Assembly: GCA_965222615.1 (NCBI GenBank)
Contig: CBDCUI010000008.1
Location: 224,001 to 288,000 of the forward strand
DNA: 64,000 bases
Source of the DNA: Gammaproteobacteria bacterium
GTDB lineage: Bacteria > Pseudomonadota > Gammaproteobacteria > UBA4575
Direction of reading: 5' to 3'
Under the pieces are notes generated by a model that did no database searches, was not told the origin of the DNA, and saw only the letters and a list, made by a program, of their open reading frames with translations. The translations under genes and the position numbers were made by a program. Positions 11,134 to 33,767 of the stretch are shown here, piece after piece (position 1 is the stretch's first letter; every line of letters starts with the position of its first letter).

Positions 11134-11294
11134 ATAAAGTTTTAATATTTAAGTATCTCTAAGATTTCCGCACTATAAAGTTAATCTGGCATACTAAGGG
11201 CGACCTTGGGGCATTAACAAGTTTCAAAAAGATGACGAATTAATTGTTCGTGCAAAATGTATTTAAATTTTTACAAAGAGATGGGAAGTTTGTA

Positions 11295-14339: not shown

Positions 14340-14360
14340 GTAAAATTGCAAGCTTAAAGA

Positions 14361-14894: not shown

Positions 14895-14960
14895 AAACGT
14901 GGTACGTATTTCTAAATATATCTTTTGATAGTTCCATATAAAGCATATAAAAATTAACAA

Positions 14961-15689: not shown

Positions 15690-15812
15690 TAGTTATTTCA
15701 TGCGAGAAAAATTCTTATTACGCGAAAAAATAAACGGAATTATCAGAATATAGCTTGAGAGCAATCACTGTAATTATACTGGGTAAAAATTTTATTAATT
15801 GGAAATATCATA

Positions 15813-17051: not shown

Positions 17052-17095
17052 ACCAATAATCTATTCTTGTTTATTAGTATGGCTATATATAAGTT

Positions 17096-18376: not shown

Positions 18377-18399
18377 ATACTATTTTAGTTCAACTTAAA

Positions 18400-19230
18400 A
18401 TGATTACTGAAGATAAAATGATAGTAATTGATAGTCAAAGGAAAGGTTGGTCTGCTTTTGACTTTAAAGAGCTTAAAGAATATAGAGACTTGTTCTATTT
18501 TCTTGTTTGGCGCGATATCAAAGCATTATATGCTCAAACTATCTTAGGATTTGCGTGGGCAATTCTTAACCCACTTATTCAAATTGTTATCTTTACAATA
18601 ATTTTTGGAAAAGTCGCGAAACTTCCTACAGATGGGATCCCTTATGTACTGTTTTCTTCTGTAGCGATCATACCTTGGACGTATATGTCGGATGCAATGA
18701 TGAAATCTAGTGCTAGCCTGGTAACTGGCCAAGGTATGCTAGGTAAAATTTATTTTCCACGAATGTTATTCCCAATTACTCCAGTGTTAGCCAAGCTAGT
18801 CGACTTTGGAATATCTTTAATTCTACTTTTAGCAATTGTTATCTACTATCGAGTTCCACTAACCTGGAATCTCTTGTTATTGCCTTTACTGATTGTATTA
18901 ATGATTATGATTCCCACCGCAATCGGTTTGTGGCTGTCTGCACTTGCGATTAGGTATCGAGATGTCAAATTTGCAATGCCGTTTGTGCTCAGGATGTTAA
19001 TTTATACGGCACCAATTTTATATTCTGCTTCGTCAATACCAGAAAACTATAGAATTCTCTATTCGTTAAACCCGCTTGTAGCAGTAATAGAGGGATTTCG
19101 TAGTTGTTTATTAGGTATACCAATACAATATGAATATATAATTCCAGGTATTATTACAACAGTAGTTTTATTTATAAGTGGTGCAATTTACTTCAAAAAG
19201 ATGGAATCGATATTTGTTGACGTAATTTAA
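18400..19230 (+). CDS. wzm: Polysaccharide ABC transporter permease
   Basis: [44 protein letters not shown]; multiple TM segments. Confidence 0.93.
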
Positions 19231-19258
19231 TGGGCTGTCAAAATTTATTGAAGTAGCT

Positions 19259-20614
19259 ATGGATACTAAAGAATTTGCATTTAGAGCAAAAAATATTAGC
19301 AAGATATATCGACTCGGCGCAAAAAATATTGCGAAAGATAGTCTTGGTGCAATTCTATTTGATCTGGCTAGGAGCCCTTTAAAAAACTATAAAAAATATC
19401 GCGCTCTATACAAATTTAGTGAAGATGAACTTCATAGCAAATCAAATTACAATGAATCTTCTGATATTTTATGGGCACTTAATAACGTATCTTTTGATAT
19501 TAAACGAGGTGAAACGGTTGGGATAATCGGGCGTAACGGTGCCGGAAAATCAACTTTACTTAAAGTTTTAGCGCGGATAACTCACCCTACAAGCGGTCGA
19601 GTAGAAATAAGAGGAAGAATAGCAAGTCTGTTAGAGGTGGGTACAGGATTTCATCCAGAATTAACTGGAAGAGAAAATGTTTATCTCAATGGCACTGTAC
19701 TAGGGATGAGAAAACATGAAGTCGATAGAAAGTTTGATGAAATTGTAGATTTTTCAGGGGTAGAAAAATTTATCGATACACCTGTGAAGAGATATTCTAG
19801 TGGGATGCGGGTACGCCTGGCTTTTGCAGTAGCTGCACACTTGGAACCGGAAATTCTTATTGTCGATGAGGTCCTGGCGGTTGGAGATTCGGCATTTCAA
19901 AAAAAGTGCTTACACAAAATGGAAGATGTCAGTCAACATGGTAGAACCGTTTTATTCGTTTCACATAATATGGCATCAGTGAGTCGATTGTGCGAGCGTG
20001 GCATTTTGTTAGACGAAGGTACTGTGATTCAAGATGGACCCATGCATAAAGTTGTTAGTACTTACTTATCTAGTGGCACAGGTACTTCAGCTGCGAAAGA
20101 ATGGCCTGATCCTGCAAAGGCACCTGGCGAGAATGTCGCACGTCTACGGGCGGTAAGAATTATTGATAGTGATAGTAATGTTTCTGAAATTATCGATATA
20201 AGAAATAAGGTTGGAATTCAAATGGAATTTGATGTGATTGAAACGGGTTATACGATGCTTCCTCTTTTTTATATCAATAATGAAGATGGAGTGACAGCAT
20301 TTAAGACCATGGATCAAGATCTTGAATGGAGATCTAAGCCTCGGCCACTAGGACGCTTTGTCAGTACAGCATGGATTCCTGGTAACTACCTTGCAGAGGG
20401 TTCGATTTTAATTACTTGTGCACTTACTACAGTGAATCCAAATATTCCACAATTTATTGAACGTCAAACAGTTGCGGCTCAGATTGTTGACCCGATGGAA
20501 GGTGATTCGGCTAGAGGCGATTGGGCTGGGGAGATGGAAGGTGTGGTTAGACCTAAGTTGAATTGGGAAACACAATATATCGCATTAGAACAATCGAATG
20601 TTATGTCCGGTTAA
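19259..20614 (+). CDS. wzt: Polysaccharide ABC transporter ATPase with C-terminal Wzt_C domain
   Basis: [44 protein letters not shown]; ~190-aa C-terminal extension. Confidence 0.94.
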
Positions 20615-20665
20615 TATTTAGAAATAAATATATTTTTTGCTTTTCACTAGTTTTCATGAAAAATT

Positions 20666-21337
20666 ATGTTTCAGAATGTCATAACAAATGTCGAAACAAA
20701 TGACAGAGTAACTGCATTGACCTTTGATGATGGTCCTCATCCCGTATATACACCCAGCTTATTGCATATTCTCAAAAAGCATAAAGCCAAAGCTACTTTT
20801 TTTCTTGTAGGTGAACAAGCCGTTAAATATCCGGATATTGTTGAGCAGATAGCTACAGCTGGACATGAAATAGGCACTCATACTTGGAAACATAGAAATC
20901 TAACATTAATCAAATCACGACGCCATCGAATGAAGTTAATGTGGAAAGGTTCGAAAGCGATTGCACCTTACTTCACGCGTTTATTTAGACCACCATATGG
21001 AGCACAAGACAAACGCATTCAGATTGATGCATCAATTTTGAGGTATAAGCTTGTACTTTGGAACGTTTCTGCGCAGGATTGGATACCGCAGCAAGCAGAA
21101 GAAATAACGGGAAAAATTGTAAATCGCGTTGCGCCAGGAAATATATTTCTTTTACATGATGCTATATATGATAGTCAGAAGCAGGGTACAGCTAAAATGC
21201 ATGATCGTGAACCTATGTTAACTGGTCTTGACAATGCACTTACTGAACTTAAAAACAAGTTTCGATTTATTACTGTAAGTGAGATTATTAAATGTGGAAA
21301 ATCCGTATGCAATTGGCCAATTAAAAGTATGGCCTAG
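20666..21337 (+). CDS. Polysaccharide deacetylase (NodB/CE4)
   Basis: ALTFDDGP, HEIGTHTWKH, FRPPYG, LLHD. Confidence 0.92.
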   Translation: MFQNVITNVETNDRVTALTFDDGPHPVYTPSLLHILKKHKAKATFFLVGEQAVKYPDIVEQIATAGHEIGTHTWKHRNLTLIKSRRHRMKLMWKGSKAIAPYFTRLFRPPYGAQDKRIQIDASILRYKLVLWNVSAQDWIPQQAEEITGKIVNRVAPGNIFLLHDAIYDSQKQGTAKMHDREPMLTGLDNALTELKNKFRFITVSEIIKCGKSVCNWPIKSMA

Positions 21338-21418
21338 GTTTTATTCCGTCTAGAACTAAGTGTGAGTTCCGATTCATACATTAAGTTTAACTACTTTTTC
21401 TAGCTCAGGACTAACGAA

Positions 21419-22324
21419 TTGACAGCATCTACAATACAACTCAGTGTAATAATACCCTGCTTCAATGCCGGCGCTACATTAGCCGAGCAGCTTGATGCGC
21501 TTAGTGCTCAAAAATGGTCTAAGCCATGGGAATTAATCGTTTCCGATAACGGTTCAACTGATAATTCAAATGAGATTGCACAGCAATACAAAGACAGGTT
21601 TCATGCCTTTAAAATTGTAGACTCATCTGAAAAAAGAGGTGGTGCGAACGCTGTCAATAAAGGAGTGATCGAAGCCAGTTCCGATAATATTGCTGTTTGT
21701 GATGCTGATGATGAAGTAACACCAGGTTGGGTAGCGGCAATGGGAGATGCTTTGAGTAAGCATGAAATTGTTTGCGGTAAATTCAAGTTTGATAAATTTA
21801 ATGCGCCTGAAGATGCGGAACGAGCTCTACAAGGCTGGGAGACAGGGCTTTATGTGGGAAGATTTTTGCCTGGTGGTGGAAGTGGCAATTATGGAATTAG
21901 GAAATCTGTTCATGACAGTATTGATGGTTTTGACACATGTTTTAAAAATGTTTATGACGCAGATTATTTTTGGAGATTGCAATTAAAAGGTCATAAATTG
22001 CATGTTGTGCAAGATGCAGTTATTCAAATTCGTTTACCACAAGCTAATTCTTCTTTATCTTATAGGTTTCGTAAAGCGAAAGGTAAAGCGGCATCAAATT
22101 ATTGGCTTTATAAGCGCTATAAAGAATATGGTATGCGGGCCCCTAAACCATTTACAAAAATATTTATTGAATGGACATTGCTATTGAGAAATGGAATGCG
22201 TAATTGTTTGAAGAACAAAGAAAATAGGTTTGTATGGCTCCCAAAATTCGCCCAAAAAACCGGGTTCCTGGTTGGGGAAATTCAAGGTCGATTATCGAAC
22301 CCATGCAAACCATTTATACCTTAG
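21419..22324 (+). CDS. Glycosyltransferase family 2
   Basis: SVIIPCFN, SDNGSTD, CDADD. Confidence 0.9.
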   Translation: MTASTIQLSVIIPCFNAGATLAEQLDALSAQKWSKPWELIVSDNGSTDNSNEIAQQYKDRFHAFKIVDSSEKRGGANAVNKGVIEASSDNIAVCDADDEVTPGWVAAMGDALSKHEIVCGKFKFDKFNAPEDAERALQGWETGLYVGRFLPGGGSGNYGIRKSVHDSIDGFDTCFKNVYDADYFWRLQLKGHKLHVVQDAVIQIRLPQANSSLSYRFRKAKGKAASNYWLYKRYKEYGMRAPKPFTKIFIEWTLLLRNGMRNCLKNKENRFVWLPKFAQKTGFLVGEIQGRLSNPCKPFIP

Positions 22325-22359
22325 TAATAAAATAAGAATCTATTACTTTAGTATTTTTG

Positions 22360-23772
22360 TTATTTATGTTTAATATGTAAATATAAGACTGCATCGCCAT
22401 TAAATGGTGCACTAAATTGCATTTTATTTTGTAAATTAGCTATACCAGTTTCGACTATTTTTCCAGATGCCGGATTAAACCACTCATATTTATAAGTACC
22501 TGAAACTATTTGTGCATGAAAGGCGCCAGAGTTGGGCTGATATATGAGATATTCTAAGCCTGGATTCCTTAGGCAGTAACCTGTAGAGCAGTGTTCTAAA
22601 TTAGACGAAGGCACCATGTTTACTAAATCAATTTTTTTTGAATATTCTAAAGTGTAACCCATATTCTTTCGAGCATCGATTAAGTTCCACTTTTTCCAGT
22701 GGCCACCTAAAGGATCCATATAAATGGGATTTAAACCTCTTAGAAAACTTTTCCAAATCCAAATTCTATCTCCTCCTATGCCCCATAAATGGTCTGTATC
22801 ACTAATAATAATTTTTTCGCCGTTAGCAAGTGGTGGATCTTTTCTATAATTTTCACCATTATTTTTATTTTGGATGGGAGAAATCCAATCCGCATCACTT
22901 TCAAAAACAAATTTGTTTCCCAACGATTTGTGGCTTGTTAAGCCAACTGGATGTTGATTGGGTTTTGTAGCTTGATAATGATTGAGATAGTCTAGAAGCG
23001 CATATTGCCATTGTTTATGTTTTTCAGCCCAAAATTTGTCCATACCAGGATCTTCGTTGCAAATTTCGTATAAGACATTATCGAAATCATTTACAGTATC
23101 GACAATTTTTCGAATATAGGCCTTCTGAAACTCAAGGATGGTGTTATCTAATACAGAATGAAATTCTTCGCCCTCACCATTGCGGTTCAAATAATCAGCG
23201 TTTAACTCATTGATATTATTGGATTTATTGAATGGATGGTACTTAAATACATTAATGTGATTGCCAAAGCTAGTATCTATGCTCCAGCCTTGAAACAGCA
23301 TAATGCTAATATATTGGTTTCGATATTTAGCAATTTTTACTCTGGAACTTAAAATGTCGAAATGGAGTTGGTTAAATTTATTTAAATCAAATTTCAATAA
23401 GCCGTCATTAGCATTCCCTGGGCCGGTTCTTTGCCAAGGCATTATTGAGACAGTATCGCCTTCTTCAGTATATGCATTTCCTTTAGTGTGTTCGCTCATC
23501 CAATATCTAATGAAATTATGGCCATGCCTTTCAAGCATTTTAGAAAATTCATTGAAAGACCCTGGTTTTATAAATGACCAAGTGTGCGAACCAGTGAGAT
23601 AAACAATTTCATTTTTTGCATTTGCAAAATAGCGTGGATTATCAGGATGGACTGTGAGTGGACTAGAGCTAAGTGTTGTACTACCTAGTATGTAAACTAG
23701 GAATATGCTTATTTTTAGAATTATTTTTTTTAACAATTTAATTAATAAATAATGTAATAAATAATTAATCAC
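22360..23772 (-). CDS. Secreted glycoside-hydrolase-like protein (DUF4038/DUF6298-type TIM barrel + C-terminal putative collagen-binding domain)
   Basis: Hydrophobic N-terminus, VHPDNPRYF, YLTGSHTW, NVLYEICNE, DTDHLWG, C-terminal YEWFNPASG...DAVLYL. Confidence 0.6.
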   Translation of the reverse strand: MINYLLHYLLIKLLKKIILKISIFLVYILGSTTLSSSPLTVHPDNPRYFANAKNEIVYLTGSHTWSFIKPGSFNEFSKMLERHGHNFIRYWMSEHTKGNAYTEEGDTVSIMPWQRTGPGNANDGLLKFDLNKFNQLHFDILSSRVKIAKYRNQYISIMLFQGWSIDTSFGNHINVFKYHPFNKSNNINELNADYLNRNGEGEEFHSVLDNTILEFQKAYIRKIVDTVNDFDNVLYEICNEDPGMDKFWAEKHKQWQYALLDYLNHYQATKPNQHPVGLTSHKSLGNKFVFESDADWISPIQNKNNGENYRKDPPLANGEKIIISDTDHLWGIGGDRIWIWKSFLRGLNPIYMDPLGGHWKKWNLIDARKNMGYTLEYSKKIDLVNMVPSSNLEHCSTGYCLRNPGLEYLIYQPNSGAFHAQIVSGTYKYEWFNPASGKIVETGIANLQNKMQFSAPFNGDAVLYLHIKHK

Positions 23773-23834
23773 ACGCTGCAGAGTAGATTTACAATATTTA
23801 GTAAGAAAGAATTTATAAATTATGGTTGTAATTA

Positions 23835-25043
23835 TTATAAATAAAGAATTTCGGAAATAACTTCTTTATATTTTATTGCATAGTTTTCTCTTGTGTGATG
23901 TTTCCTGGCAAATTCCCAAGCTTTGCGTGATCTAGCTTCTAATTTTTCAGCGGATAAATTAGCGATGTATCTTACTGAATGCTTAATTTCATCGACCGAA
24001 CTGTTATTAAGGATCAGGCCAAAATCTTCAACATCTGATGCAGTCTCATAGCTTATTATAGGGATTAATCCTGCGTGCATACCCATTTTTACAGAACCTG
24101 TACCGGCCTCAGAGCAACTTATATGCAGCATGGCAACACAATTTTTAATTATTTTTTTAAACTGATCGCCTTCAATGTCAACCCAGCCAATTGTTTCAAT
24201 ATTAGGTGTATTAAATAATTCATTATGATAAGCATTAATAAAATCTTTGTCTTTTTCTAGTGTTACACAAATGGTTAAATGGCAATCAGGTAAATCGCGA
24301 AATGCATCTAATACTAAATCTAAGCCTTTATGTACGAAGCCACTACTACTGAACCAAAGAAAATTGTTTCTAACATGATTCCAATTTTTATCCTCAATCC
24401 AGTCATAAGTAGTTGCACACGGGGTGGGCAATTTAAATATTTTTTTATTTGCGTAACTAAACGTATTGATGCACGCATCGTTGCCAACAGTGGTGGCATA
24501 GTCTGCATAATCTATAAGTAAATTAGGTGGTTCAAATCTTCGAGGTTGTAAAATTATACTGCGTCTAATTTGCAATTCTAATAATCTTTTTGCTTCTGCA
24601 GCATTATGGAAAAGTATGTGGGAAGTATCTAAATGAGCTATTTTTACACAGTCGTCATTAAGTAATGGGGCAAGCCGCTCCATGTTTCTGCGTACATCTA
24701 CAAATGCTGCATATTCTCCCTCCGGGATGTATTTATCATTTCTCCAACTGATTACATCGACAATGTAGCCAAGTTCGACAAAAATCTCTGCCATGTTTAC
24801 CGATTGCCATATATTAGTGTGATTATTGGCAATTTGATCTTTGGACTGAACAAGAAACCCATTAATTATGTAAGAAAAGAGAACTTTCCCGCGTGCTGTT
24901 CCTTCGGGTTCGAGCCTGACTACAATACGATCAAGTTTTTCAGTTTTCAGTTTTTTTTTAGTACTACGAAAACAGGATTTTAGCGCTTGAACATATGTAT
25001 AGACTTCACTGCTTTGAGCAGGGCTTATGATCGTTTTTTTCAT
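23835..25043 (-). CDS. Glycosyltransferase (GT-B, GT4-like)
   Basis: HKGLDLVLDAF, SCSEAG, HAGLIPI; GT-B C-terminal pattern. Confidence 0.8.
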   Translation of the reverse strand: MKKTIISPAQSSEVYTYVQALKSCFRSTKKKLKTEKLDRIVVRLEPEGTARGKVLFSYIINGFLVQSKDQIANNHTNIWQSVNMAEIFVELGYIVDVISWRNDKYIPEGEYAAFVDVRRNMERLAPLLNDDCVKIAHLDTSHILFHNAAEAKRLLELQIRRSIILQPRRFEPPNLLIDYADYATTVGNDACINTFSYANKKIFKLPTPCATTYDWIEDKNWNHVRNNFLWFSSSGFVHKGLDLVLDAFRDLPDCHLTICVTLEKDKDFINAYHNELFNTPNIETIGWVDIEGDQFKKIIKNCVAMLHISCSEAGTGSVKMGMHAGLIPIISYETASDVEDFGLILNNSSVDEIKHSVRYIANLSAEKLEARSRKAWEFARKHHTRENYAIKYKEVISEILYL

Positions 25044-25111
25044 TATTCTATTTTAAAAAAATAAAATTTTTCTGTGTCATTGAAATTTAGCTGAAATTAG
25101 CACTAAAGTTT

Positions 25112-25984
25112 CTAAGTTCTAGTGGTATTAATAGTAGAACTAGCTAATTTTTTTATTGCTCTTTGAGTAAAGACTTTTAGTCGCTTAAACATGTTAAAAT
25201 TTTGTTCTGAATTTTTTTGTGGTATAGGACGCATCAAGATGAGGTTTAAAGGCACCGCACTATTACGTGTCCAGAGGTGTTTCTCCTCTTCGCAACTGAT
25301 ATCCGCTGAAGCGTGAGATTTTTGCTTAATAAAAGTTTCTTCTGAAGGCCAATGCCAATTTTTCTCCCATGTCCAAACTTTGTAGTCTTGATAGTGATTC
25401 ACAAGTTTTTTCACGATATTATCTTTTGCGGGAAACGTTATCATTTCTTCTACATGAGTATACTGCGGTACAATATGAATTGTCCTAGTACTGCAATAGT
25501 TAGAGTACCAGAGGTTAAAGTTTATTGTCGCTTGTAATTCATTTACAACGCGATAAACTTGTACATGCTCTTCATGACCATATTCCCCCCAAGGATTGTG
25601 CGTAAATATGTTTTGATATTGACTTAGTATAGGACTCAGTTTCTCTTTTAGTTCGTAGTAATTCTTCAGATATATATCTTTGTCTGTTAGATGTGTGTTG
25701 TTTTTCCCAACAAATTCTAGCCCATATTGATTGAAGATTGGTGTTTCAAAGCTTCGCGGCCTCCAAACACCGAGTGAGGAAAGACCTAGACAAGAAACAT
25801 TTTGCATTGGGCTGTTTGATATTGATTTAATGCGCCGCGCTCCAAAGTTTGGATCTGCTAACTCATTGGAAAAACATATTATAATTTGTTGAACTTTTTC
25901 TAGTATAGAACTAAACCACAGAACCTCATCGTCTGGGTGTGCGGCAACGATTACCGAGTTCTTCAACTTGCTTACGTTTCCCAT
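25112..25984 (-). CDS. PIG-L/LmbE-family deacetylase
   Basis: AHPDDEVLW and THNPWGEYGHEEH metal-binding motifs. Confidence 0.8.
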   Translation of the reverse strand: MGNVSKLKNSVIVAAHPDDEVLWFSSILEKVQQIIICFSNELADPNFGARRIKSISNSPMQNVSCLGLSSLGVWRPRSFETPIFNQYGLEFVGKNNTHLTDKDIYLKNYYELKEKLSPILSQYQNIFTHNPWGEYGHEEHVQVYRVVNELQATINFNLWYSNYCSTRTIHIVPQYTHVEEMITFPAKDNIVKKLVNHYQDYKVWTWEKNWHWPSEETFIKQKSHASADISCEEEKHLWTRNSAVPLNLILMRPIPQKNSEQNFNMFKRLKVFTQRAIKKLASSTINTTRT

Positions 25985-26126
25985 TATTAGAAATTACCTT
26001 GTCAGAAAATAATTATTTAAAGGTAATTAGATTTTGCTATTAAAATAATAGAGTATGATACATGATTCGCTATCTCCTTCGATTCACCTTCATTGATCGA
26101 GTATTTTGAATCTAGTTATAAATTGG

Positions 26127-27938
26127 TTACTGATTCAGCTCAGGCAAATCACGTAGTTTAATCTCAAAGAGTTTTGGCCATAACTTTCCAGTGACGAAAA
26201 ATTGGTTACTACTGTTATTATATGCAATACCATTCAAGTTATCCGTTTTTCCCTCTTGATCTTTAATGCTTAATAGGCCTTCAAGGTTAATCCAACCTAC
26301 TACTTGACCAGTTTGAGGGTTTATAATTGCAATGTAATCAGTTGGATGAATATTTGCGTAGATCAGACCGTTTATGAACTGTAATTCGTTCAACCCATTT
26401 TGTGGTTTATCATTACAGTGAACCTGTATTTGTGTAAATTCTTTGAAGGTTTCTGGGCTAAAACATCGCAAAATGGAACTGCCGTTACTCATTATTAGAT
26501 GTTCCCCATCATTAGTTAGTCCCCAACCTTCGCCCTCGTACTTAAACTCACCAATAATATTCAAATTTTGTTTATCGTAGATGAACCCCATTTCAGTCAT
26601 GTGGGTAAGTTGAAAAACTTTATCGTGATATATTGTTATTCCTTCTCCCCATAGATGGGCTGGTAACTCCTTCATTGCAATAACATTGCCGGTTTCAAGG
26701 CATACTTTACGAATCGAGGAAAACCACTTCTGCCCTGTGCTTTCGTATAAAACTCCTTCGTCGAAAACTATGCCCTGCGTCCATGCTTTACTATCGTGCT
26801 TATAGCTCTTGACTACGTCATGTTCGTATATTTGTATTCTATTAAAATTAAACTTATCTATAGACTGTTTTGATTCCTTTATTTTGGGTCGTGGATTTCT
26901 AACAGCACGCCTTCCGATGCGCCAAGCATTTCTTATTAAAGGCCTGATTCTGACTATACCTTTTCGTTCAATCGTTACGTTTTGATTAAAGCGTGGTTTT
27001 GCGCCTAAACTAAATTTATAACGTTCATCACCTACACCTAAATCAAATATCTCAAAGCCTTGTTCTAACGCATACTGAATATTCAATATATTCACTATAA
27101 GCCCGGGAGAGTGTATGCCATGATAATCAAGGTTGTAAGTGATATTGTATCCATATAACGCTTTCTTAATTGGGTCTACAAATCCTGCAAAAGCTCCAAT
27201 TACTACCTCATTATCTTTGAGTACAATAAGCCTTAAGCATCCTTCTGCAAAAGTTATCCTAAACAAACTACGATAGCGTTCGGCACGCATAGGCAACTTT
27301 CCCCACTGTTTTACACGAAATTTCAGTAGTGTCTCTATCTGTTCTTCAAGATTAGCCTGTGTAGTTTCAATAACGGAAAATCCTGAAAGTCTATCAACTT
27401 CTCGAAGTGAACGTCGTATTGCTCCACGTGTCTTTTTTTTAAGATAATTGCTTAAATAATCTTCCCAGTTTTCAGGTAGAGAAATAAAAGGGGCTTGTGT
27501 GTCAGGTTGATGTGAAACACTGTATTTTTTAGTAGAAAATGATTGAATAAATAAATCGAGTCTTGTATCAAATACAGCTTCAAGTGAAAGCGTGTTCCAT
27601 TTTAATGAATTTTGGATAAACTCAGCTATTGTGCTTATGGCTTTCTTTTCGTATTCTTTTCGACAAACAAAACCAGTATGATCAACAAGTGGAACTCCAC
27701 CAGAGACTAAAGTAAAAATGTCTTTTTTTCGACGCAACGCCATAAAGGCAACATAAGGGCCTTGCTCGTTTTGTCGTACTCCAATAACTAACCAATCTCG
27801 GGGGAATAACTTTATCCATGCCTTGGTCCATGCCCATGATACAAAAATTGTTGCTTTGAGATCGGCATTATAAACATCCTCCCAATTAACTTTTAATTCA
27901 TCAAATTCTTCAAAGGACCTTAATAGGGTCACTTGCAT
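26127..27938 (-). CDS. Fusion protein: GNAT (CelD/BcsL-like) acyltransferase + glutaminyl-peptide cyclotransferase domain
   Basis: N-part: TIFVSWAW, LPENWEDYL, SPGL, FDLGVGDERYKFSLGA. C-part: WTQG, YESTG, WGEG, EGWGLT, SNGSS, LNEL, LNGIAY, VTGKLWP. Single uninterrupted frame, SD GAGGA upstream. Confidence 0.85.
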   Translation of the reverse strand: MQVTLLRSFEEFDELKVNWEDVYNADLKATIFVSWAWTKAWIKLFPRDWLVIGVRQNEQGPYVAFMALRRKKDIFTLVSGGVPLVDHTGFVCRKEYEKKAISTIAEFIQNSLKWNTLSLEAVFDTRLDLFIQSFSTKKYSVSHQPDTQAPFISLPENWEDYLSNYLKKKTRGAIRRSLREVDRLSGFSVIETTQANLEEQIETLLKFRVKQWGKLPMRAERYRSLFRITFAEGCLRLIVLKDNEVVIGAFAGFVDPIKKALYGYNITYNLDYHGIHSPGLIVNILNIQYALEQGFEIFDLGVGDERYKFSLGAKPRFNQNVTIERKGIVRIRPLIRNAWRIGRRAVRNPRPKIKESKQSIDKFNFNRIQIYEHDVVKSYKHDSKAWTQGIVFDEGVLYESTGQKWFSSIRKVCLETGNVIAMKELPAHLWGEGITIYHDKVFQLTHMTEMGFIYDKQNLNIIGEFKYEGEGWGLTNDGEHLIMSNGSSILRCFSPETFKEFTQIQVHCNDKPQNGLNELQFINGLIYANIHPTDYIAIINPQTGQVVGWINLEGLLSIKDQEGKTDNLNGIAYNNSSNQFFVTGKLWPKLFEIKLRDLPELNQ

Positions 27939-27958
27939 AGTTATCCTCTAGGTATTTC

Positions 27959-28942
27959 TTACCAGCTAAACGCTTTTTCGAATGCTTGAGAAAGTCGAAA
28001 CACAGCAGTTTTACTTTTATTATCATTTAAGGATGATGTAGGGCCACTAGGAGTATTGTTTACATCTACGATGTATATCTTACCGTCATGGCGATCTCTA
28101 AGTACATCTATCTCACAATAGTCGAGACCTAGCCTTTTACAAAATCTATTCAATTTTGTTAGTTCTTCCTTAGATAAAACTTCAGCCACTTCTGCAATAT
28201 TGGCTTTTGTGTTTGTATGTTTTCTATCAACAAAACGGCTTTCTATAGGCCTGTATTTCAGATATACAAAAGGGATGATGCCTCCAAATACAGGAACCCT
28301 AATATCCTCGACAGAATCTTCAGAAACTTCATTATAGATAAGTCTTTGATATGTAACATTTGGCTCTCGTTCTTTGATAGGACATTGTATTACTCTGCCT
28401 TCATGAAGCGCATTCCAGTTTGATTTTGCAACACACTGGCCATTAAATTTTGTTGGATCAACAGATATTTGATATTCAAAAACTTCGTAAAAAACCTTAT
28501 TAATGTAATTCTTACTAATATCTTCACAACTCAGATTCAGGAATTTCGAATTTGATGAATGTACGGCAACATTTTTTAGAATGTTTTCCTTTGTTGGTAA
28601 AAATGGATTGCCGTCATACGCATTAAACCATTTCATAGCAATGTCCCAGTTAGCACTTGGATTCGTTGTAATACGAAATCCCAAAAACATTAGTACTTTA
28701 TAGAGAGCATGGAGTGGTAAAGGTTTATCTGGATAGAATAATATTGTTTTGCGCTTAACATATGCATCATATAAACTTTTTGCTAGAAGGTTTAATTTTT
28801 CTAAAGACCGATGTGTGTTCTCTACATGCTTTCTTTGGTTGTATATATGAATAAATGCTGGGTAATTTTCATTAATTTTCTTGTTTAAAACCCTTATGGT
28901 CCATCTAATTTTTTTCTTGATTTTGACTATCATCACGCACAT
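27959..28942 (-). CDS. ATP-grasp-like hypothetical protein
   Basis: CVAKSNWNALHEG, YQRLI, EDIRV, GLDYCEIDVL...IYIVDVNNTP match the ATP-grasp motif order. Confidence 0.6.
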   Translation of the reverse strand: MCVMIVKIKKKIRWTIRVLNKKINENYPAFIHIYNQRKHVENTHRSLEKLNLLAKSLYDAYVKRKTILFYPDKPLPLHALYKVLMFLGFRITTNPSANWDIAMKWFNAYDGNPFLPTKENILKNVAVHSSNSKFLNLSCEDISKNYINKVFYEVFEYQISVDPTKFNGQCVAKSNWNALHEGRVIQCPIKEREPNVTYQRLIYNEVSEDSVEDIRVPVFGGIIPFVYLKYRPIESRFVDRKHTNTKANIAEVAEVLSKEELTKLNRFCKRLGLDYCEIDVLRDRHDGKIYIVDVNNTPSGPTSSLNDNKSKTAVFRLSQAFEKAFSW

Positions 28943-29250
28943 TTACTCACATTAGATAAAATACAATGTACTAAATATTCAAAATGCCTGATAGGGGATT
29001 CAATTTATTTAGTCCATGAATGAGGACTATGTATCATAATTTTATTAAGCTGATTCTAGACATATTCTAGTCATAAAATTAAAAGGCCTAGTAATTGCGT
29101 AAATGCCTGTATTTAAAATTAATATGGCGCAGCTTTATTCAGTAATTGTGTGATTGGTATCAAAGAATAATGTGCGCCAGTTCAAAAAAGTGACCTAATT
29201 TGCATTTTTTGCTGATGGAAAACACTAAAATACCCTACTTTAAATAACCA

Positions 29251-30456
29251 TTGGAAAAGATGAGGGATGCAATGAATTCTATATGGAGTTGGATAGAGTC
29301 ACGTAATGGAATTACGTCATTAAAATGCTCTTTTATATGCATGACACTAGTCATTGCACTCGTTGGCTGCTCTGGCGGCGGCGGTAGTGGTGGCGGTGCA
29401 GTGGGTGGAAATACCGCACCATCAATCACCGCGGGTTGCTCAAGCACAAACCAGTCAGATCAGTTGATGGGGACGTTGGTTGCTTCGGATGCTGATCCGA
29501 TATCTTTTAGTCTGGACGTGAATGCTCCTATGGTCGCAGGGCCAGTGGCTACTGCAAATGGAGGAATGGTTGAATTGACCGATGTTACGACAGGTGCGTT
29601 TACCTATACACCTCCAGCACAAGGCGTTGGTCCTCGTGGAAGGGATTCATTCCAGTTTCGTGTAGATGACCCAACCTCATTTAGTATTGCAACTGAAATG
29701 GTTATTGTTAATCCTAAAATTATGCCTTTAGGAGATTCTATTACTCTGGGTACTGGTGGCGGTGCTGTACCTCCAGCAGGTGAAGAAGTCGCCTATCGTT
29801 TGCAGTTACTCAATCGATTGGTAGATGCAGGCCAAGCTGGTGGTGCGTACTCGTTTGAGTATGTGGGTGAGGAGTCTTCAGGGGCAAACTTATTACCTGC
29901 AGGCCAGACATCGCATGCCGGTTATGGTGGATGTCGAGATCAGGATATTGCTGGCTTAGATAATTGCTTTGGTTTAGCACCAAATTTGACTGGTATCTAT
30001 GATGAACTGGAACAAAATCCTGCCGACATTGTATTGTTACATATCGGTACCAATCCCCCAGTCGTAGATCCTGACCCAACTGACTTAGAGACAATTCTGA
30101 ATGAAATAGGACGCTGGGAAGATAGTGCAAATGGTAATCCGGTGTCCATTGTAGTTATGCAAATTATTCCTAAAATGTCTGCTGATCCACAAGTGCAAGT
30201 TTATAACACAAATGTGATCGCTCGAATTACAGATAGGTTGATGAATAATCCTGTAGGCCTACCTGATCAGATTGTCTATGGAGGCAATGAAGCCAATGTA
30301 GATATGTATACTGCGTTTGGTGGAGCCACACCGAATGCGGCCTTGTATCAAGATGGGTTACATCCAAATACTGCTGGCTTTACTATCATGGGCGATATGC
30401 TATATAGCGTTTTAACAGGAACGAATCGTCCAGCGATTCTGCAACAGTGTCCATAA
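29251..30456 (+). CDS. Lipoprotein with Ig/cadherin-like domain and SGNH/GDSL hydrolase domain
   Basis: Lipobox LVGC + Gly-rich linker, GAFTYTP...DSFQFRV, GDSIT, HIGTN, DGLHPN; start codon uncertain. Confidence 0.8.
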   Translation: MEKMRDAMNSIWSWIESRNGITSLKCSFICMTLVIALVGCSGGGGSGGGAVGGNTAPSITAGCSSTNQSDQLMGTLVASDADPISFSLDVNAPMVAGPVATANGGMVELTDVTTGAFTYTPPAQGVGPRGRDSFQFRVDDPTSFSIATEMVIVNPKIMPLGDSITLGTGGGAVPPAGEEVAYRLQLLNRLVDAGQAGGAYSFEYVGEESSGANLLPAGQTSHAGYGGCRDQDIAGLDNCFGLAPNLTGIYDELEQNPADIVLLHIGTNPPVVDPDPTDLETILNEIGRWEDSANGNPVSIVVMQIIPKMSADPQVQVYNTNVIARITDRLMNNPVGLPDQIVYGGNEANVDMYTAFGGATPNAALYQDGLHPNTAGFTIMGDMLYSVLTGTNRPAILQQCP

Positions 30457-30490
30457 ATTAATTAAGTTAAATATTTAAATTAAAAATAAT

Positions 30491-30545
30491 GTTAGTAGGG
30501 TTTGATTCTGTAGTTAAATTAACTTTAAATATGAACCCTACTAAC
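30491..30545. terminator. Inverted repeat after the SGNH lipoprotein gene (terminator or stabilising hairpin)
   Basis: GTTAGTAGGGTT 30491-30502 / AACCCTACTAAC 30534-30545, with inner palindrome AGTTAA-A-TTAACT; no clear U-tract. Confidence 0.45.
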
Positions 30546-30838
30546 TGCATTCCTATAATAATTAATAACATCTCCAATAACTCTAAAGTAAAAGTGTTGT
30601 AAAAAATAGTTAATCGTTCTAACTATTAAAAATATAAATCACTCCTACTTTATAATATAACTTACTATTTTACTTAAGAATTAATAGCATGCCCCTTTCA
30701 TCCAAATAGTTTTGAGCATATAAAAATTTATTGTTTGGATGTAAAATTAATTTCACAATTGATCGCGAATTTCTTAACTGTATGTGAGAAAATAACGTAT
30801 TGGTTTCCAGGACAGTAATTTTATTAGCATAAAAATAA

Positions 30839-33349
30839 ATGGTCATATTTAAAGCCATATCTGCCGTTTTTTATAAAAAACTCCTTTTCGTTTTAATTTT
30901 ATTTTTTACAACTTCGACTTTGTATGCAGCAGTCATACCCCAGTCGGGTTGGAGTCTTTTATATGTAGATAGTGAGCAGTTACCGGAATTTCCGGCCACC
31001 AATGCCTTTGATGGGGATCCTAGTACGAAATGGCACACCGCGATGGGTAGTTCGAATCCGGGGCATCCGCATGAGATCCAAATCGATTTAGGCGCCATTT
31101 ACGACATTGATGGTTTTCGTTATTTGCCACGTCAATGGCCTGAGAGCAAAGATGGAACGATATATAGATATAGCTTTTATGTGAGTGGGGATGGAGTAAA
31201 TTGGCTCAAAGTACTAGATGGTTCCTTTAAACCAAAAAATCGTACTGAGAAAGAAGTATTATTTTCGACGCAGACAGCACGCTATATAAGGCTAGTGGCT
31301 AAAAAAGAGATTCAGGGAAATCCTTGGACCTCTATGGCTGAATTGAATGTTTTAGGAACTATAGTATCTGGTAATCAGGCACCCAATGGGGTCATAGATA
31401 GCCCCACAGGCAATGTCAGTATCAATGCTGGGGAAACTGTAAACTTTGCTGGTACAGGATCGGATCCAGATGGGGATCCTTCTCTCATTTATTTATGGGA
31501 TTTTGATGGTGGCGCCCCCAACTCGACTGCAGAAGACCCTGGATCTATACAATTTAATAATCCAGGTACTTATAACGTCACATTCACGGTAACCGATTCT
31601 TCAAATGTATCAGATCCCACTCCAGGTCAAAGAACGATTACCGTTACTAACAATGGTGGTTGTGGCAGCCTATTTGTAGAAATCACCAAGCCGCTTACAA
31701 AAGCAATACAAGCGCCACCAAATTTTACGGTTACTACTAATGCATGTTTAGACAGTCAAAATCATAGTGGTGTCAAGTTCAAACTCGATGGTGGAAATTC
31801 GCAGGGAGGTGCAGAAATTACTGATCTCTCATCACCTTATGCGGCTGTATTTTCAAATGTACCCATGACTGATGGTCATACTATTGAAGCTGTAATCATA
31901 GACAATAATGGCAATGAAGTTTCTGGACAGAATACTAGCGATACCGTTACCCAAATTGGTTCTGGAGATTATTATGTTGCCATCGGAGATAGCATAACCT
32001 TTGGCGTAGGGGATAATATTTCCTCGGATGACACCTCACAAGATGGACGCAACCAAAGCCAAGGATATACTCCGATTCTCAACGATTTACTGACACAGTC
32101 TAAATCTTATCCCCATACGGTAGTCAATAAGGGAGTGTCAGGACACAAATCGATTGAGGGTTTAAGTTTATTGCCCTCGATTATAGCTGAGCATCCAGAC
32201 GCACGGTTTTATCTCATTCAATATGGCACCAATGATGCCACAGGGGGCGGTGTGATCCCTGTTCCGTCGGGTCTTGGCTTAAATTCAGGTGACCCAGGTT
32301 ATCCAGGCACCTATAAACACAATATGCAACAGATTATCGATCTAATTAGAAACTCTTCTGGGGTGAGTAAGGAGCCCTATTTAGCCAAATTGCCATATGC
32401 ACCCACTGCACCAAACCTGAGTCAGCGGATGGCTGAATATAATTTAGTAATTGATGAGCTCGTCTCTGCGAATTCCATTGCCGTGACACCGCCGGATTTC
32501 TATGCATATTTTCAAGCTAATCCGAACCAGTTCCATGACAATGTCCACCCAAATGGGGCAGGGTATCAGGGTATGGCTGGACTATGGGCGAATTCGCTGA
32601 GTTCCTTTAATCAGGCACCTAATGGTGTCATTAACAGCCCTACATCGAGTGTCAGCATCAATGTAGGCCAGTCTGTGAGTTTTACCGGTACGGGTTCTGA
32701 TCCAGACGGTGATACTTCTTTAACGTATTTTTGGTATTTCGGGGGTGGCGCACCCAATTCCACCGCAGAAGATCCTGGACCGGTTCAATTCAATAATCCC
32801 GGTACATATAACGTTACCTTTACCGTTACTGATTCTTTAGGCTTAGCAGATCCAACCCCAGCGCAGCGTACGATTGTAGTTGGAGGTGGCTCCAGTGGCG
32901 GTGTTATTCCCCAGTCGGGTTGGAGTCTTTTATATGTAGATAGTGAGCAGTTACCGGAATTTCCGGCCACCAATGCCTTTGATGGGGATCCTAGTACGAA
33001 ATGGCACACCGCGATGGGTAGTTCGAATCCGGGGCATCCGCATGAGATCCAAATCGATTTAGGCGCCATTTACGACATTGATGGTTTTCGTTATTTGCCA
33101 CGTCAATGGCCTGAGAGCAAAGATGGAACGATATATAGATATAGCTTTTATGTGAGTGGGGATGGAGTAAATTGGCTCAAAGTACTAGATGGTTCCTTTA
33201 AACCAAAAAATCGTACTGAGAAAGAAGTATTATTTTCGACGCAGACAGCACGCTATATAAGGCTAGTGGCTAAAAAAGAGATTCAGGGAAATCCTTGGAC
33301 CTCTATGGCTGAATTGAATGTTCTTGGTGTGTTCTCTTCTGGGCCTTAA
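30839..33349 (+). CDS. Secreted modular esterase: F5/8C(CBM32)-PKD-Ig-SGNH-PKD-F5/8C
   Basis: Signal peptide; NAFDGDPSTKWHT...IQIDLG...ARYIRL discoidin domain twice; WDFDGG/WYFGGG...PGTYNVTFTVTD PKD domain twice; GDSIT, GTND, DNVHPN SGNH blocks. Confidence 0.88.
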   Translation: MVIFKAISAVFYKKLLFVLILFFTTSTLYAAVIPQSGWSLLYVDSEQLPEFPATNAFDGDPSTKWHTAMGSSNPGHPHEIQIDLGAIYDIDGFRYLPRQWPESKDGTIYRYSFYVSGDGVNWLKVLDGSFKPKNRTEKEVLFSTQTARYIRLVAKKEIQGNPWTSMAELNVLGTIVSGNQAPNGVIDSPTGNVSINAGETVNFAGTGSDPDGDPSLIYLWDFDGGAPNSTAEDPGSIQFNNPGTYNVTFTVTDSSNVSDPTPGQRTITVTNNGGCGSLFVEITKPLTKAIQAPPNFTVTTNACLDSQNHSGVKFKLDGGNSQGGAEITDLSSPYAAVFSNVPMTDGHTIEAVIIDNNGNEVSGQNTSDTVTQIGSGDYYVAIGDSITFGVGDNISSDDTSQDGRNQSQGYTPILNDLLTQSKSYPHTVVNKGVSGHKSIEGLSLLPSIIAEHPDARFYLIQYGTNDATGGGVIPVPSGLGLNSGDPGYPGTYKHNMQQIIDLIRNSSGVSKEPYLAKLPYAPTAPNLSQRMAEYNLVIDELVSANSIAVTPPDFYAYFQANPNQFHDNVHPNGAGYQGMAGLWANSLSSFNQAPNGVINSPTSSVSINVGQSVSFTGTGSDPDGDTSLTYFWYFGGGAPNSTAEDPGPVQFNNPGTYNVTFTVTDSLGLADPTPAQRTIVVGGGSSGGVIPQSGWSLLYVDSEQLPEFPATNAFDGDPSTKWHTAMGSSNPGHPHEIQIDLGAIYDIDGFRYLPRQWPESKDGTIYRYSFYVSGDGVNWLKVLDGSFKPKNRTEKEVLFSTQTARYIRLVAKKEIQGNPWTSMAELNVLGVFSSGP
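30938..31351 (+). repeat. 414-bp direct repeat, copy 1 (F5/8C domain)
   Basis: No mismatch found by eye against 32909-33322 (offset 1971). Confidence 0.93.
32909..33322 (+). repeat. 414-bp direct repeat, copy 2 (F5/8C domain)
   Basis: No mismatch found by eye against 30938-31351. Confidence 0.93.
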
Positions 33350-33362
33350 GAGGTAAGTTGTC

Positions 33363-33767
33363 ATGCTTAAAAAAATTATTCTATGCGGCTTTGTGATAAT
33401 AGGCATACTGCATGTAACAGCTGTATTACCTGCTGAAGACCCTATTATCGATAATACAATAACACCATTTTTTGAAGCATTAAAAAATGGAGACGTAAAA
33501 ACTATAGAAACTTATATTGATGAACCATTGTATTCACAAATCAAAGTGCTGTTAACAAAAAACCAAAAATATCCAGAATATCTACGTAAATACTATACAG
33601 ATACATATGTGGATGTTACCGGCATTAAAGATCTAACAGATAAAAAGAAAGATGTGAATGTAGAAATTCATTTTCCTGATAATTACATTGAAGCGATAAT
33701 CTTACATCTAAGTCAAGTAAGTACTGGTGAATGGAAGATCACAGAACAGACAGTAATAACTAATTAA
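33363..33767 (+). CDS. Small exported hypothetical protein (possibly NTF2-like)
   Basis: Signal peptide, FFEALKNGD...GEWKI pattern; SD GAGG upstream. Confidence 0.65.
   Translation: MLKKIILCGFVIIGILHVTAVLPAEDPIIDNTITPFFEALKNGDVKTIETYIDEPLYSQIKVLLTKNQKYPEYLRKYYTDTYVDVTGIKDLTDKKKDVNVEIHFPDNYIEAIILHLSQVSTGEWKITEQTVITN

Follow-up and report, generated by a model that had tools for sequence, protein, structure and literature searches.

A Fem-like transferase joined to a type I glutaminyl cyclase in an inverted segment of a conserved Wzm/Wzt glycan cluster: a possible route to a pyroglutamyl cap

In the biosynthesis of mycothiol (MshA/B/C) and bacillithiol (BshA/B/C), transfer of GlcNAc is followed by de-N-acetylation and by ATP-dependent acylation of the freed amine, and the logic of a GT4 glycosyltransferase (GT) acting with a PIG-L deacetylase recurs in these two, in the glycosylphosphatidylinositol (GPI) and in the aminoglycoside pathways. 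The E. coli O8/O9a type stands for ABC-transporter-dependent O-polysaccharides in which the C-terminal domain of Wzt binds the terminal cap; export by transporters of this Wzt_C type depends on the cap, and the terminator of E. coli O9a, WbdD, is a kinase and methyltransferase. According to the sections of PMC12945691 used here, Fem-type enzymes bind tRNA through a basic helix, FemX Lys305 and DhpH Lys329 are key residues that each follow a Phe, and Orf11 converts streptothrisamine to glycylthricin using Gly-tRNA, that is, it aminoacylates an amino sugar. The known type I glutaminyl cyclases act on exported proteins or peptides, as excerpts of two papers state (PMC7948796; PMC10653852). Here we describe a 603-residue protein in which a Fem-like transferase domain is joined to a type I glutaminyl cyclase. 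Its gene (26127-27938, minus strand) belongs to a block of five minus-strand genes within a stretch of 64,000 nucleotides from a gammaproteobacterium of the UBA4575 lineage (contig CBDCUI010000008.1, positions 224,001 to 288,000), referred to below as the window, and all coordinates are those of the window.

In Pfam, the 603-aa protein matches Acetyltransf_6 (PF13480, E-value 3e-15) and Glu_cyclase_2 (PF05096, E 1e-84), while none of the NCBIfam families matches it at E≤0.01; a FemAB model of the PEP-CTERM type, if NCBIfam includes one, is thus unmatched as well. The combination was found in no other protein among the best matches of two large searches. A word-indexed search of 5.8 billion clusters returned 1158 matches, among the 120 best of which the window protein alone carries PF13480 and PF05096 together; the others are GNAT-only proteins of 345-394 aa or cyclases without GNAT, mostly of 333-391 aa. 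In an exhaustive HMMER search of 1.84 billion representatives, which a divergent fusion scoring below about 207 bits could escape, the window protein is likewise the only one matched across both halves among the best 150 of 10,611 matches. Eight matches of the exhaustive search show two matched stretches and were considered as further fusions. Seven of them (P0363, P0364, P0370, P0385, P0395, P0403 and P0368) are cyclase-cyclase tandems or a GNAT-GNAT-TPR protein by Pfam, and the eighth, P0039, carries PF13480 only, so that all eight were rejected. The Fem-like::cyclase architecture is new and is represented by one sequence. As separate observations, tandem cyclase-cyclase proteins of 466-1013 aa exist (P0363, P0364, P0370, P0385, P0395 and P0403), and P0472 has an M28 peptidase domain fused to a type I cyclase.

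The nearest GNAT-only relative of the fusion protein (P0002, 361 aa) stands alone and is 62% identical, and stand-alone cyclases are about 50-54% identical to the cyclase half. The stand-alone GNAT homologues of 345-394 aa end at the fusion joint and the propeller begins about 20 residues further on, which indicates a precise fusion and not a read-through of two complete genes. The open reading frame (ORF) is intact over its 603 codons, and starts 20 bp past the stop of the preceding gene for an ATP-grasp-fold protein. Its ATG is preceded, at 7 nt, by a GAGGA ribosome-binding site. Its guanine-plus-cytosine (GC) content of 0.369, its GC content at third codon positions (GC3) of 0.300 and its codon-usage distance of 0.038, among the lowest in the window, are all host-like, and a recent import of the fusion was rejected on these grounds. 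GC3 is higher in the cyclase half (0.358) than in the GNAT half (0.257), a difference that is not decisive.

The N-terminal half (residues 1-347; 26898-27938, minus strand) folds, in the predicted structure, like the FemABX-type aminoacyl-tRNA-dependent transferases, with a double-GNAT fold. The AlphaFold 2 (AF2) model of the N-terminal 350 residues has a mean predicted local distance difference test score (pLDDT) of 90.4. Its best Foldseek match is FemX of W. viridescens (E 2e-13, template-modelling (TM) score 0.65), followed by the aminoacyl-tRNA-dependent peptide synthases Sbb17/Sba18, in crystal structures with the amino sugar streptothrisamine bound (E 5e-12, TM 0.59-0.63 by query); S. 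aureus FemX and FemA and the aminoacyl-phosphatidylglycerol synthase domain of MprF are further matches. The Fem-type matches reach a TM score of 0.66 by query, with a FemX/Sbb17 range of 0.59-0.66, and the acetyl-CoA-dependent tandem GNATs rank lower, at 0.35-0.53. A Fem-like nature of this domain, offered as an alternative in the initial annotation of the locus, is therefore borne out by its top matches, FemX and Sbb17/Sba18. Of the 28 sequences compared, all have K308 and at least 90% have Y307, and the C-terminal helix is basic. The Y307-K308 pair lies near the position of FemX Lys305, to which K308 may be equivalent.

Sbb17/Sba18 share the double-GNAT Fem-like fold with this domain, and their acceptor is an amino-sugar amine in the account given in part of PMC12945691. 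They differ from the window protein, to which PDB sequence and profile searches detected no sequence similarity, in that its gene lies in a polysaccharide and not an antibiotic cluster and is fused to a cyclase. FemX and the FemABX enzymes are alike in giving the best structural match and perhaps in the aromatic-Lys pair, whereas the window protein belongs to Acetyltransf_6 and not to FemAB, and its context is not that of peptidoglycan synthesis.

The C-terminal half (residues 365-600; 26139-26846, minus strand) is, by sequence, a typical glutaminyl cyclase of type I, the plant and bacterial type with a five-bladed beta-propeller, but with a remodelled aromatic pocket. It scores 284.3 bits against PF05096, for which the cut-off is 22.3, and its sequence matches in the PDB are 3MBR (5e-59), 3NOL (8e-57) and 2FAW (2e-50). 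The active-site residues of the papaya enzyme, as listed in the legend to Fig. 1 of PMC9436314, were mapped by HMMER alignment to chain 2FAW_A. Q388, E432, W472, N517 and K585 of the fusion correspond to papaya Q24, E69, W110, N155 and K225, all five of which are kept, whereas papaya F22, F67, W83 and W169 are replaced by W386, W430, H446 and H531. Residues were counted in 225 domains from 219 homologues (92 homologues in a first pass). The five polar site positions are conserved in 217-224 of these 225 homologous domains. Histidine occurs at the W83 or W169 position in none of them, and tryptophan at F22 in four and at F67 in five, never at both together in one homologue. The domain is thus like the type I cyclases of X. 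campestris (3MBR), Z. mobilis (3NOL) and papaya (2FAW/2IWA) in sequence and in its five polar site residues, and it differs from them in the F22W, F67W, W83H and W169H replacements, in its fusion to a cytoplasmic enzyme and in having no export signal. A location outside the cytoplasm is typical of the family without strictly defining it. The fusion protein has neither a hydrophobic N-terminus nor an internal signal, and most of the 12 stand-alone cyclase homologues whose N-termini were inspected begin with a hydrophobic signal-like segment.

The block to which the fusion gene belongs consists of exactly five minus-strand ORFs, at 22360-23772 (470 aa), 23835-25043 (402 aa), 25112-25984 (290 aa), 26127-27938 (603 aa) and 27959-28942 (327 aa), with spacers of 62, 68, 142 and 20 bp and with plus-strand genes on both sides. 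The ORF listing gives exactly the coordinates that the initial annotation had reported for five co-oriented genes spaced by 20-142 bp. All five are real genes, because each has homologues at E≤1e-60. Eleven of the 55 window ORFs of at least 100 aa are on the minus strand, three of these 11 lie inside longer plus-strand ORFs, and the block is the sole run of consecutive minus-strand genes in the window. The GC skew changes sign across the block, as is expected from coding-strand bias.

The surroundings of related genes were sampled by scanning genome contigs with an alignment of the ATP-grasp-fold protein (27959-28942); the best 80 of 135 relatives gave 78 loci (L numbers below), and the window itself is not among them. 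A phmmer comparison of the block proteins with the ORFs of these loci found the ATP-grasp protein in 78/78, the GT in ten, the PIG-L protein in nine and the DUF6298 protein in three. The GNAT half and the cyclase half of the fusion were each found in 0/78, and profile hidden Markov models of the GNAT and cyclase families returned nothing in the 78 loci at E≤10. Close orthologues of the ATP-grasp protein are present in 12 loci. The closest come from metagenome-assembled genomes (MAGs), seven of Nitrospirales, one deltaproteobacterial and one of Thermodesulfobacteriaceae, and L011, L013 and L015 come next.

For 18 genes of the window, all within 11244-33767, orthologues exist in L001-L008, L044, L011, L013 or L015, mostly at E 1e-36 to 1e-190, with weaker values for the small gene at 33363 and for cut or fragmented copies. 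The close loci share Wzm, Wzt (with Wzt_C), a CE4 deacetylase, the GT, a GT2, a sulfotransferase, the ATP-grasp protein and PIG-L, and further a nucleotidyltransferase, a cupin epimerase, a C-methyltransferase, a DUF4910 protein, a short-chain dehydrogenase/reductase (SDR), a hexapeptide transferase and an F5/8-PKD-GDSL esterase. Gene order in these loci differs from that of the window, but the gene content is the same. Each gene in 11244-25984, 27959-28942 and 30839-33767 has an orthologue in at least one close locus, and within 11244-28942 the GNAT-cyclase gene alone is without a counterpart in the 78 loci. The orthologues of the four other block genes (E 1e-34 to 1e-190) run in the direction of the cluster and are interleaved with other cluster genes. 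Judged by this orthology, the genes for the ATP-grasp, PIG-L, GT and DUF6298 proteins are native core or recurrent members of the cluster that are inverted here, and the block is an inverted segment of a conserved Wzm/Wzt cluster of about 18 genes plus one lineage-specific gene. The cluster is horizontally distributed and, from its predicted gene functions, specifies an ABC-transporter-dependent glycan with an NDP-6-deoxy-C-methyl-hexose branch. We hold this comparative part of our interpretation, a native cluster inverted here and a fusion peculiar to one lineage, with high confidence. The earlier description of the block as an inserted cassette does not apply to four of its five genes.

The ATP-grasp, GT and PIG-L genes occur together in 7/78 loci (L001-L004, L006, L008, and L011 with a PIG-L fragment only). 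ATP-grasp and PIG-L are found in eight loci; the two genes are adjacent in three of these, once with a 70-aa ORF between, and in 5/8 a small methyltransferase gene lies between them, with three more ORFs there in L008. The window is without that methyltransferase, and the fusion gene occupies the same slot between ATP-grasp and PIG-L. The fusion gene is, by this comparison of neighbourhoods, a lineage-specific addition in a variable slot. The CE4 deacetylase gene (20666-21337), which is absent from the account given in the initial annotation, is linked to the GT and ATP-grasp genes about as tightly as PIG-L. The co-occurrence of all five block genes expected in that account holds for ATP-grasp, PIG-L and GT together and fails for the GNAT-cyclase gene, present in 0/78 loci. 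A conserved five-gene route centred on the ATP-grasp enzyme is contradicted by the co-occurrence of these three genes without any cyclase, and it follows from their conservation that the ATP-grasp enzyme cannot have evolved to feed the cyclase.

This type of cluster is partly anticipated by PMC4000134, in the portion of it that we cite. There, modified-carbohydrate clusters with DUF4910 (CA_C2195-like) proteins are described, an 'ATP-grasp amino acyl ligase' appears in Table 2 and Nitrospirae are among the clades. The window resembles them in having its DUF4910 gene (17096-18376) beside nucleotidyltransferase, epimerase, methyltransferase and GT genes. It differs in that the C. acetobutylicum example is a locus of the nonulosonic-acid type, and neither PIG-L nor a cyclase is mentioned in that portion of the paper (PMC4000134). 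As an observation of its own, the DUF4910/DUF2172/HTH_47 protein of 17096-18376 and the sugar C-methyltransferase of 15813-17051 are a pair more strongly conserved than any other in the cluster, with E 1e-170 to 1e-190 between phyla. Compared with the E. coli O8/O9a type, the locus is alike in Wzm and Wzt, in the Wzt_C domain (in L002, and weakly in the window) and in a variable tailoring slot by the ATP-grasp gene, whereas no WbdD-like kinase/methyltransferase was seen and the window adds Wza/Wzc-like genes and more than ten sulfotransferases. With mycothiol and bacillithiol synthesis it shares, by analogy, the grammar of a GT, a PIG-L and a putative ligase. It departs from them in having an ATP-grasp fold and not an aminoacyl-tRNA-synthetase-like MshC or a BshC, no cysteine-related gene was seen, and the Wzm/Wzt export cluster suggests a polymer of the cell surface as the product in place of a soluble thiol.

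The protein of 27959-28942 (minus strand, 327 aa) reaches no cut-off in Pfam, where its best match is Ins134_P3_kin with 18.3 bits against 23, nor in NCBIfam, where the best is MptN with 18.4 bits against 350. The Ins134_P3_kin match covers residues 247-298 only, the shared nucleotide-binding part. Among 42 scanned members of the family, weak Pfam matches are to Ins134_P3_kin in eight, RimK in three and YheCD in two, and the best Pfam match is no better than E 0.0018. The homologues number 263, and the best 120 of them carry no precomputed Pfam domain and no name other than 'hypothetical protein'. Modelling nevertheless confirms a three-domain ATP-grasp fold, as had been proposed. The AF2 model, built on 42 sequences, has a pLDDT of 92.1 and a predicted TM score (pTM) of 0.88, and the PDB matches listed by Foldseek are all ATP-grasp enzymes (E 7e-9 to 7e-7, TM 0.41-0.51). 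K144, K173, E277, D279, D293 and N295 are invariant in the 42 sequences, and the protein reads IVDVNNTP at the acidic/Asn motif; the conserved Lys together with E/D-x-N presumably form the Mg-ATP motif of ATP-grasp enzymes.

Kinases and carboxylate-amine ligases score alike against the model, and the enzyme may be of either kind. The kinases Asp1, Vip1, PPIP5K2 and ITPK1 are among the matches, the inositol-pyrophosphate kinases being at the top, and the ligases PsnB, Ddl and LysX/ArgX are nearly as good. In the Atlas, the 30 nearest clusters have no common Pfam family, and the nearest named ones are of the RimK/Ddl type, with a weak score of 0.91. The deltaproteobacterial MAG locus L001 (6768-10864) contains three ATP-grasp modules, one in a 316-aa paralogue and two in a 702-aa protein whose N-terminal half has a weak RimK match and whose C-terminal half is the orthologue of the window protein; PIG-L lies between the two ATP-grasp genes. 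Three modules in one cluster are typical of stepwise ligases and, with the RimK match and the nearest named Atlas clusters, lean the assignment to a ligase, which we regard as somewhat the more probable function. The neighbours of 60 distant homologues are mixed (sulfotransferases, GTs, a flippase, and also housekeeping genes, for instance those for NAD synthase, redoxin and DPP-IV), with no single recurrent partner among them. Sulfotransferase genes often stand directly beside genes of this family. A sulfotransferase adjoins the ATP-grasp gene in some of the related loci, namely on each side of it in five cyanobacterial loci (L027, L038, L042, L056 and L060; Xenococcaceae/Hyella) and likewise in L014 and L016 of Bacteroidales and in the close loci L002-L004 and L011.

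The remaining genes of the block are a deacetylase, a glycosyltransferase and an exported protein. The PIG-L/LmbE-family de-N-acetylase (25112-25984, minus strand; Pfam 36.2 bits against 28.2) is predicted to be cytoplasmic and has no hydrophobic segment. Near its N-terminus it carries AHPDDE (in VIVAAHPDDE), which we take to be the PIG-L/LmbE metal-site motif, and its orthologues are found in eight loci at E 1e-69 to 8e-81. The GT (23835-25043, minus strand) is assigned to the GT-B, Glycos_transf_1/GT4-like type by a sub-threshold Pfam match (19.5 bits against a cut-off of 26.4, E 7e-4; E 4e-5 for the L005 orthologue) and by its Atlas neighbours (score 0.99), of whose members 65-73% carry Glycos_transf_1 (PF00534/PF13692). 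It is highly conserved, with orthologues in ten loci, at E 1e-131 to 1e-155 in nine and 1e-68 in the fragmented L011 copy. The protein of 22360-23772 (minus strand) is a glycoside-hydrolase-like protein, predicted to be exported, with a DUF6298/apiosidase-like barrel and a C-terminal beta-sandwich. It matches DUF6298 with 34.7 bits against 28.1 and Collagen_bind_2 weakly, and has a hydrophobic N-terminal segment at residues 8-26; the L013 orthologue also matches Apiosidase. Its gene is next after the GT gene in L011, L013 and L015, as in the window. Of the domain labels first given to the block, those for PIG-L, GNAT-cyclase and the GH-like protein (as DUF6298) are upheld by Pfam and that for ATP-grasp by the model, and the GT label rests on the sub-threshold match with the backing of the Atlas. 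Two of the Nitrospirota loci have a GINT1_N-like gene (GH32/43-like propeller) ahead of the GT and DUF6298 genes (L013:6056-9737 and L015:17890-20767), and it has no homologue in the window.

From the folds, conservation patterns, neighbourhood counts and uniqueness of the fusion given above, we infer the following chemistry. By analogy with the GT4 and PIG-L pathways, the GT4-type GT would add an N-acetyl-hexosamine to a lipid-linked glycan at the cytoplasmic face, and PIG-L or CE4 would remove the acetyl group and free the amine. The ATP-grasp enzyme would then put a new acyl group, probably an amino acid, on this amine. A further step would be peculiar to this organism: the Fem-like domain would move Gln (or Glu) from charged tRNA to a free amine, either that of the sugar or, on a residue that the ATP-grasp enzyme has attached, the alpha-amine. 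The covalently attached cyclase, cytoplasmic in this case, would close the new N-terminal Gln/Glu to a pyroglutamyl (5-oxoprolyl) cap, and its remodelled pocket may be an adaptation to a non-peptide acceptor. A Fem-like transfer leaves an aminoacyl amide with a free alpha-amine, as a glutaminyl cyclase needs, and the fusion can therefore be read as an enzyme that adds and then closes. In this respect the reasoning of the initial annotation, in which the cyclase domain closes an attached Glu/Gln, was sound; the cyclase keeps its polar catalytic residues, and aminoacyl transfer makes a substrate of the cyclase type. Type I cyclases accept small non-peptide amides. So do type II cyclases, for which an excerpt of PMC7948796 gives H-Gln-AMC as an example. 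The orthologous clusters are without the fusion, and some have a methyltransferase instead, which suggests the pyroglutamyl step as a terminal decoration peculiar to this lineage rather than as what the block is for. For this reading as a whole, Fem-like transfer of Gln or Glu to a glycan amine followed by closure to pyroglutamate by the fused cyclase, our confidence falls somewhat short of an even chance. That a cytoplasmic cyclase has been recruited from protein maturation to glycan synthesis, giving a tRNA-dependent pyroglutamylation of an amino sugar, or of an amino-acid branch attached by the ATP-grasp enzyme, whose cap is possibly a non-reducing-end terminator read by the C-terminal domain of Wzt, is a more doubtful proposal.

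The chemical product would not be without parallel. Chemically, it is well documented that surface glycans of bacteria are decorated with N-acyl amino-acid and 5-oxoprolyl groups, and substituted 5-oxoprolyl N-acyl groups occur on the O-antigen amino sugars of V. anguillarum V-123, P. shigelloides O74 and V. cholerae O5, according to the part of PMC10609480 on which we draw; such groups on O-polysaccharide amino sugars are mentioned in the initial annotation as well. A full-text literature search found nothing linking glutaminyl cyclase to glycan synthesis, FemAB or exopolysaccharide gene clusters, in agreement with the earlier statement that no described route using a cyclase was known. To our knowledge, there is no described biosynthetic route to 5-oxoprolyl or N-acyl amino-acid decorations of glycans.

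Several observations weigh against the pyroglutamylation proposed here. All four aromatic pocket residues are off consensus, which could equally mean a loss of function. The kinship of the N-terminal half with Fem enzymes comes from fold comparison alone: Pfam gives Acetyltransf_6 only and no FemAB match, NCBIfam gives no match, and a profile of this half found nothing relevant among PDB sequences. Acetyl-CoA-dependent tandem GNATs match its model too, if less well, and the fold alone is no proof of tRNA use. The ATP-grasp protein matches kinases as well as ligases, with weak Ins134_P3_kin matches in 8/42 members. In L015, neither PIG-L nor CE4 is found within 10 kb of the ATP-grasp homologue. 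Finally, the fusion is a singleton, and the orthologous clusters evidently work without it.

The same singleton status in both large searches is what an accident would leave, in which a deletion joined a GNAT gene of the CelD/BcsL type to a neighbouring periplasmic cyclase gene, the export signal was lost, and the cyclase is now idle or decaying. The nearest GNAT relative (62%, 361 aa) standing alone and ending at the joint, four of nine cyclase site residues being atypical, and orthologous clusters without the gene all fit such an event. However, the 603-codon ORF is intact, with a good ribosome-binding site and host-like codon usage, the joint falls exactly between the domain boundaries with a linker of about 20 residues, and the five near-invariant residues (217-224/225) are kept while change is confined to the aromatic pocket, which is unlike random drift; we consider a fusion without a role unlikely. 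It is also possible that the N-terminal half is an acyl-CoA-dependent N-acyltransferase that re-acylates the sugar, the cyclase being unrelated to that step. The Acetyltransf_6 assignment, a nearest homologue named as a CelD/BcsL family acetyltransferase and the presence of acetyl-CoA tandem GNATs among the fold matches agree with this. Their TM scores of 0.35-0.53 lie below the 0.59-0.66 of FemX/Sbb17, the aromatic-Lys pair and the basic C-terminal helix resemble those of FemX and DhpH, and an acyltransferase gives no rationale for fusion to a cyclase, so that this explanation appears rather less probable than an accidental fusion. A peptide or protein N-terminus as the substrate, to which Gln would be added and capped as pyroglutamate, would suit what is known of both families. 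Cyclases are known to act on peptides or proteins only, a section of PMC7948796 calls the physiological targets of the type I enzymes 'not fully known', and FemX acts on a peptide stem, as described in part of PMC12945691. The gene, however, lies inside a glycan operon, 20 bp after ATP-grasp and 142 bp before PIG-L. In the block we noted neither an ORF resembling a precursor peptide nor a gene for peptide processing, and Fem-like aminoacylation of an amino sugar has a precedent; a peptide target is in our estimation very unlikely.

The two remaining alternatives concern the ATP-grasp enzyme. In a self-contained five-gene route, it would ligate Glu/Gln to the amine freed by PIG-L and the cyclase would close the product. 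The genes are indeed co-oriented and closely spaced, the ATP-grasp fold is confirmed, and only 20 bp separate its gene from the fusion gene that follows. In 8-10 loci, however, the conserved set of ATP-grasp, PIG-L and GT has no cyclase or GNAT nearby, and the cyclase is fused to the Fem-like domain and not to the ATP-grasp enzyme, which points to the former as the supplier, whereas the five-gene route would leave the Fem-like domain without a role. We give it as little credence as a peptide substrate. The initial annotation, from which this route comes, is thus partly supported, being right on the folds and the fusion logic and wrong on the conserved route and the central role of ATP-grasp. 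Alternatively, the ATP-grasp enzyme may be a kinase whose product caps the non-reducing end and so terminates the chain, the Fem-cyclase making an independent, alternative cap, a view compatible with the Fem-cyclase reading. The inositol-pyrophosphate kinases at the top of the Foldseek matches and Ins134_P3_kin as the commonest weak Pfam match (8/42) agree with it, and with the methyltransferase that lies next to it in Nitrospirales (directly downstream in 5/8 loci) it would parallel the kinase and methyltransferase of WbdD. The orthologous Wzt of L002 has a Wzt_C domain (E 5e-10), to which the window Wzt has a weak match in the same place (E 0.032). On the other side, ligases score almost as well in Foldseek, the Pfam match is limited to the nucleotide-binding part at residues 247-298, the nearest named Atlas clusters are ligases, and the three ATP-grasp modules of L001 are typical of stepwise ligases. 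A cap-building kinase is improbable in our view, about to the degree that an accidental fusion is.

By its Pfam matches, the window as a whole is a very large surface-polysaccharide locus with a GC content of about 36%. It has CysG at the left end, Wza-like, porin, Wzz-like and kinase-like genes (Wza/Wzc-like genes being present), an NDP-sugar branch with a sugar C-methyltransferase and the DUF4910 protein, Wzm and Wzt, the cytoplasmic CE4 deacetylase, GT2 genes, many GT1 genes, more than ten sulfotransferases, lyases, an asparagine synthase and a UDP-glucose dehydrogenase. The upstream part of the conserved cluster (11244-22324, plus strand), with orthologues in L001-L008, L044, L011 and L015, comprises the NDP-sugar genes (nucleotidyltransferase, FAD oxidoreductase, 4,6-dehydratase-type epimerase, cupin epimerase/isomerase, SDR, C-methyltransferase and DUF4910) and additionally Wzm, Wzt, a GT2 and the predicted cytoplasmic CE4 deacetylase (20666-21337, plus strand). 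Downstream of the block, the conserved genes (30839-33767, plus strand) encode a secreted F5/8-PKD-GDSL esterase of 836 aa, by Pfam, and a 134-aa exported protein. The esterase (30839-33349) has orthologues at E 3e-180 in L002 and 1e-171 in L004, and the small exported gene (33363) at 3e-11.

Just past the block stand two exported esterase-like genes, 29251-30456 and 30839-33349, with GC contents of 0.454 and 0.438 against about 0.37 for the rest of the locus. The first is a predicted lipoprotein (a hydrophobic stretch ending LVGC) with a Big_9 domain and a GDSITLG block, and it has a counterpart, by a weak match, in 1/78 related loci. Between 37478 and 53535, at least 11 sulfotransferase-family genes are scattered among GT1 genes, which suggests a heavily sulfated polysaccharide, and two minus-strand genes of the same locus encode a polysaccharide lyase (48999-49940) and a heparinase II/III-like protein (59516-61483). 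Promoter-like sites in 22000-29400 (22 against 30.2 expected) and terminator-like sites in the same range (2 against 4.0) give no signal, and a Rfam scan of 20000-31000 at E≤1 gave 0 matches. A repeat search of 20500-31000 found short imperfect repeats only and no inverted repeats bounding the block, whose edges therefore carry no scar of an inversion or a mobile element.

The fusion comes from a single lineage and may not be general. The cluster that surrounds it is a large glycan cluster common to Gammaproteobacteria, Nitrospirales, a Thermodesulfobacteriaceae MAG and a deltaproteobacterial MAG, and it brings to light an unnamed ATP-grasp family of 263 homologues with a confirmed fold, the closest members of which keep the GT4-type GT, PIG-L and CE4 as partners. 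If the proposed route is correct, the Fem-like and cyclase families would both have a wider substrate range, a glycan would for the first time be a substrate of a glutaminyl cyclase, and the fusion protein would provide a first enzymatic route to N-acyl sugars of the 5-oxoprolyl type.

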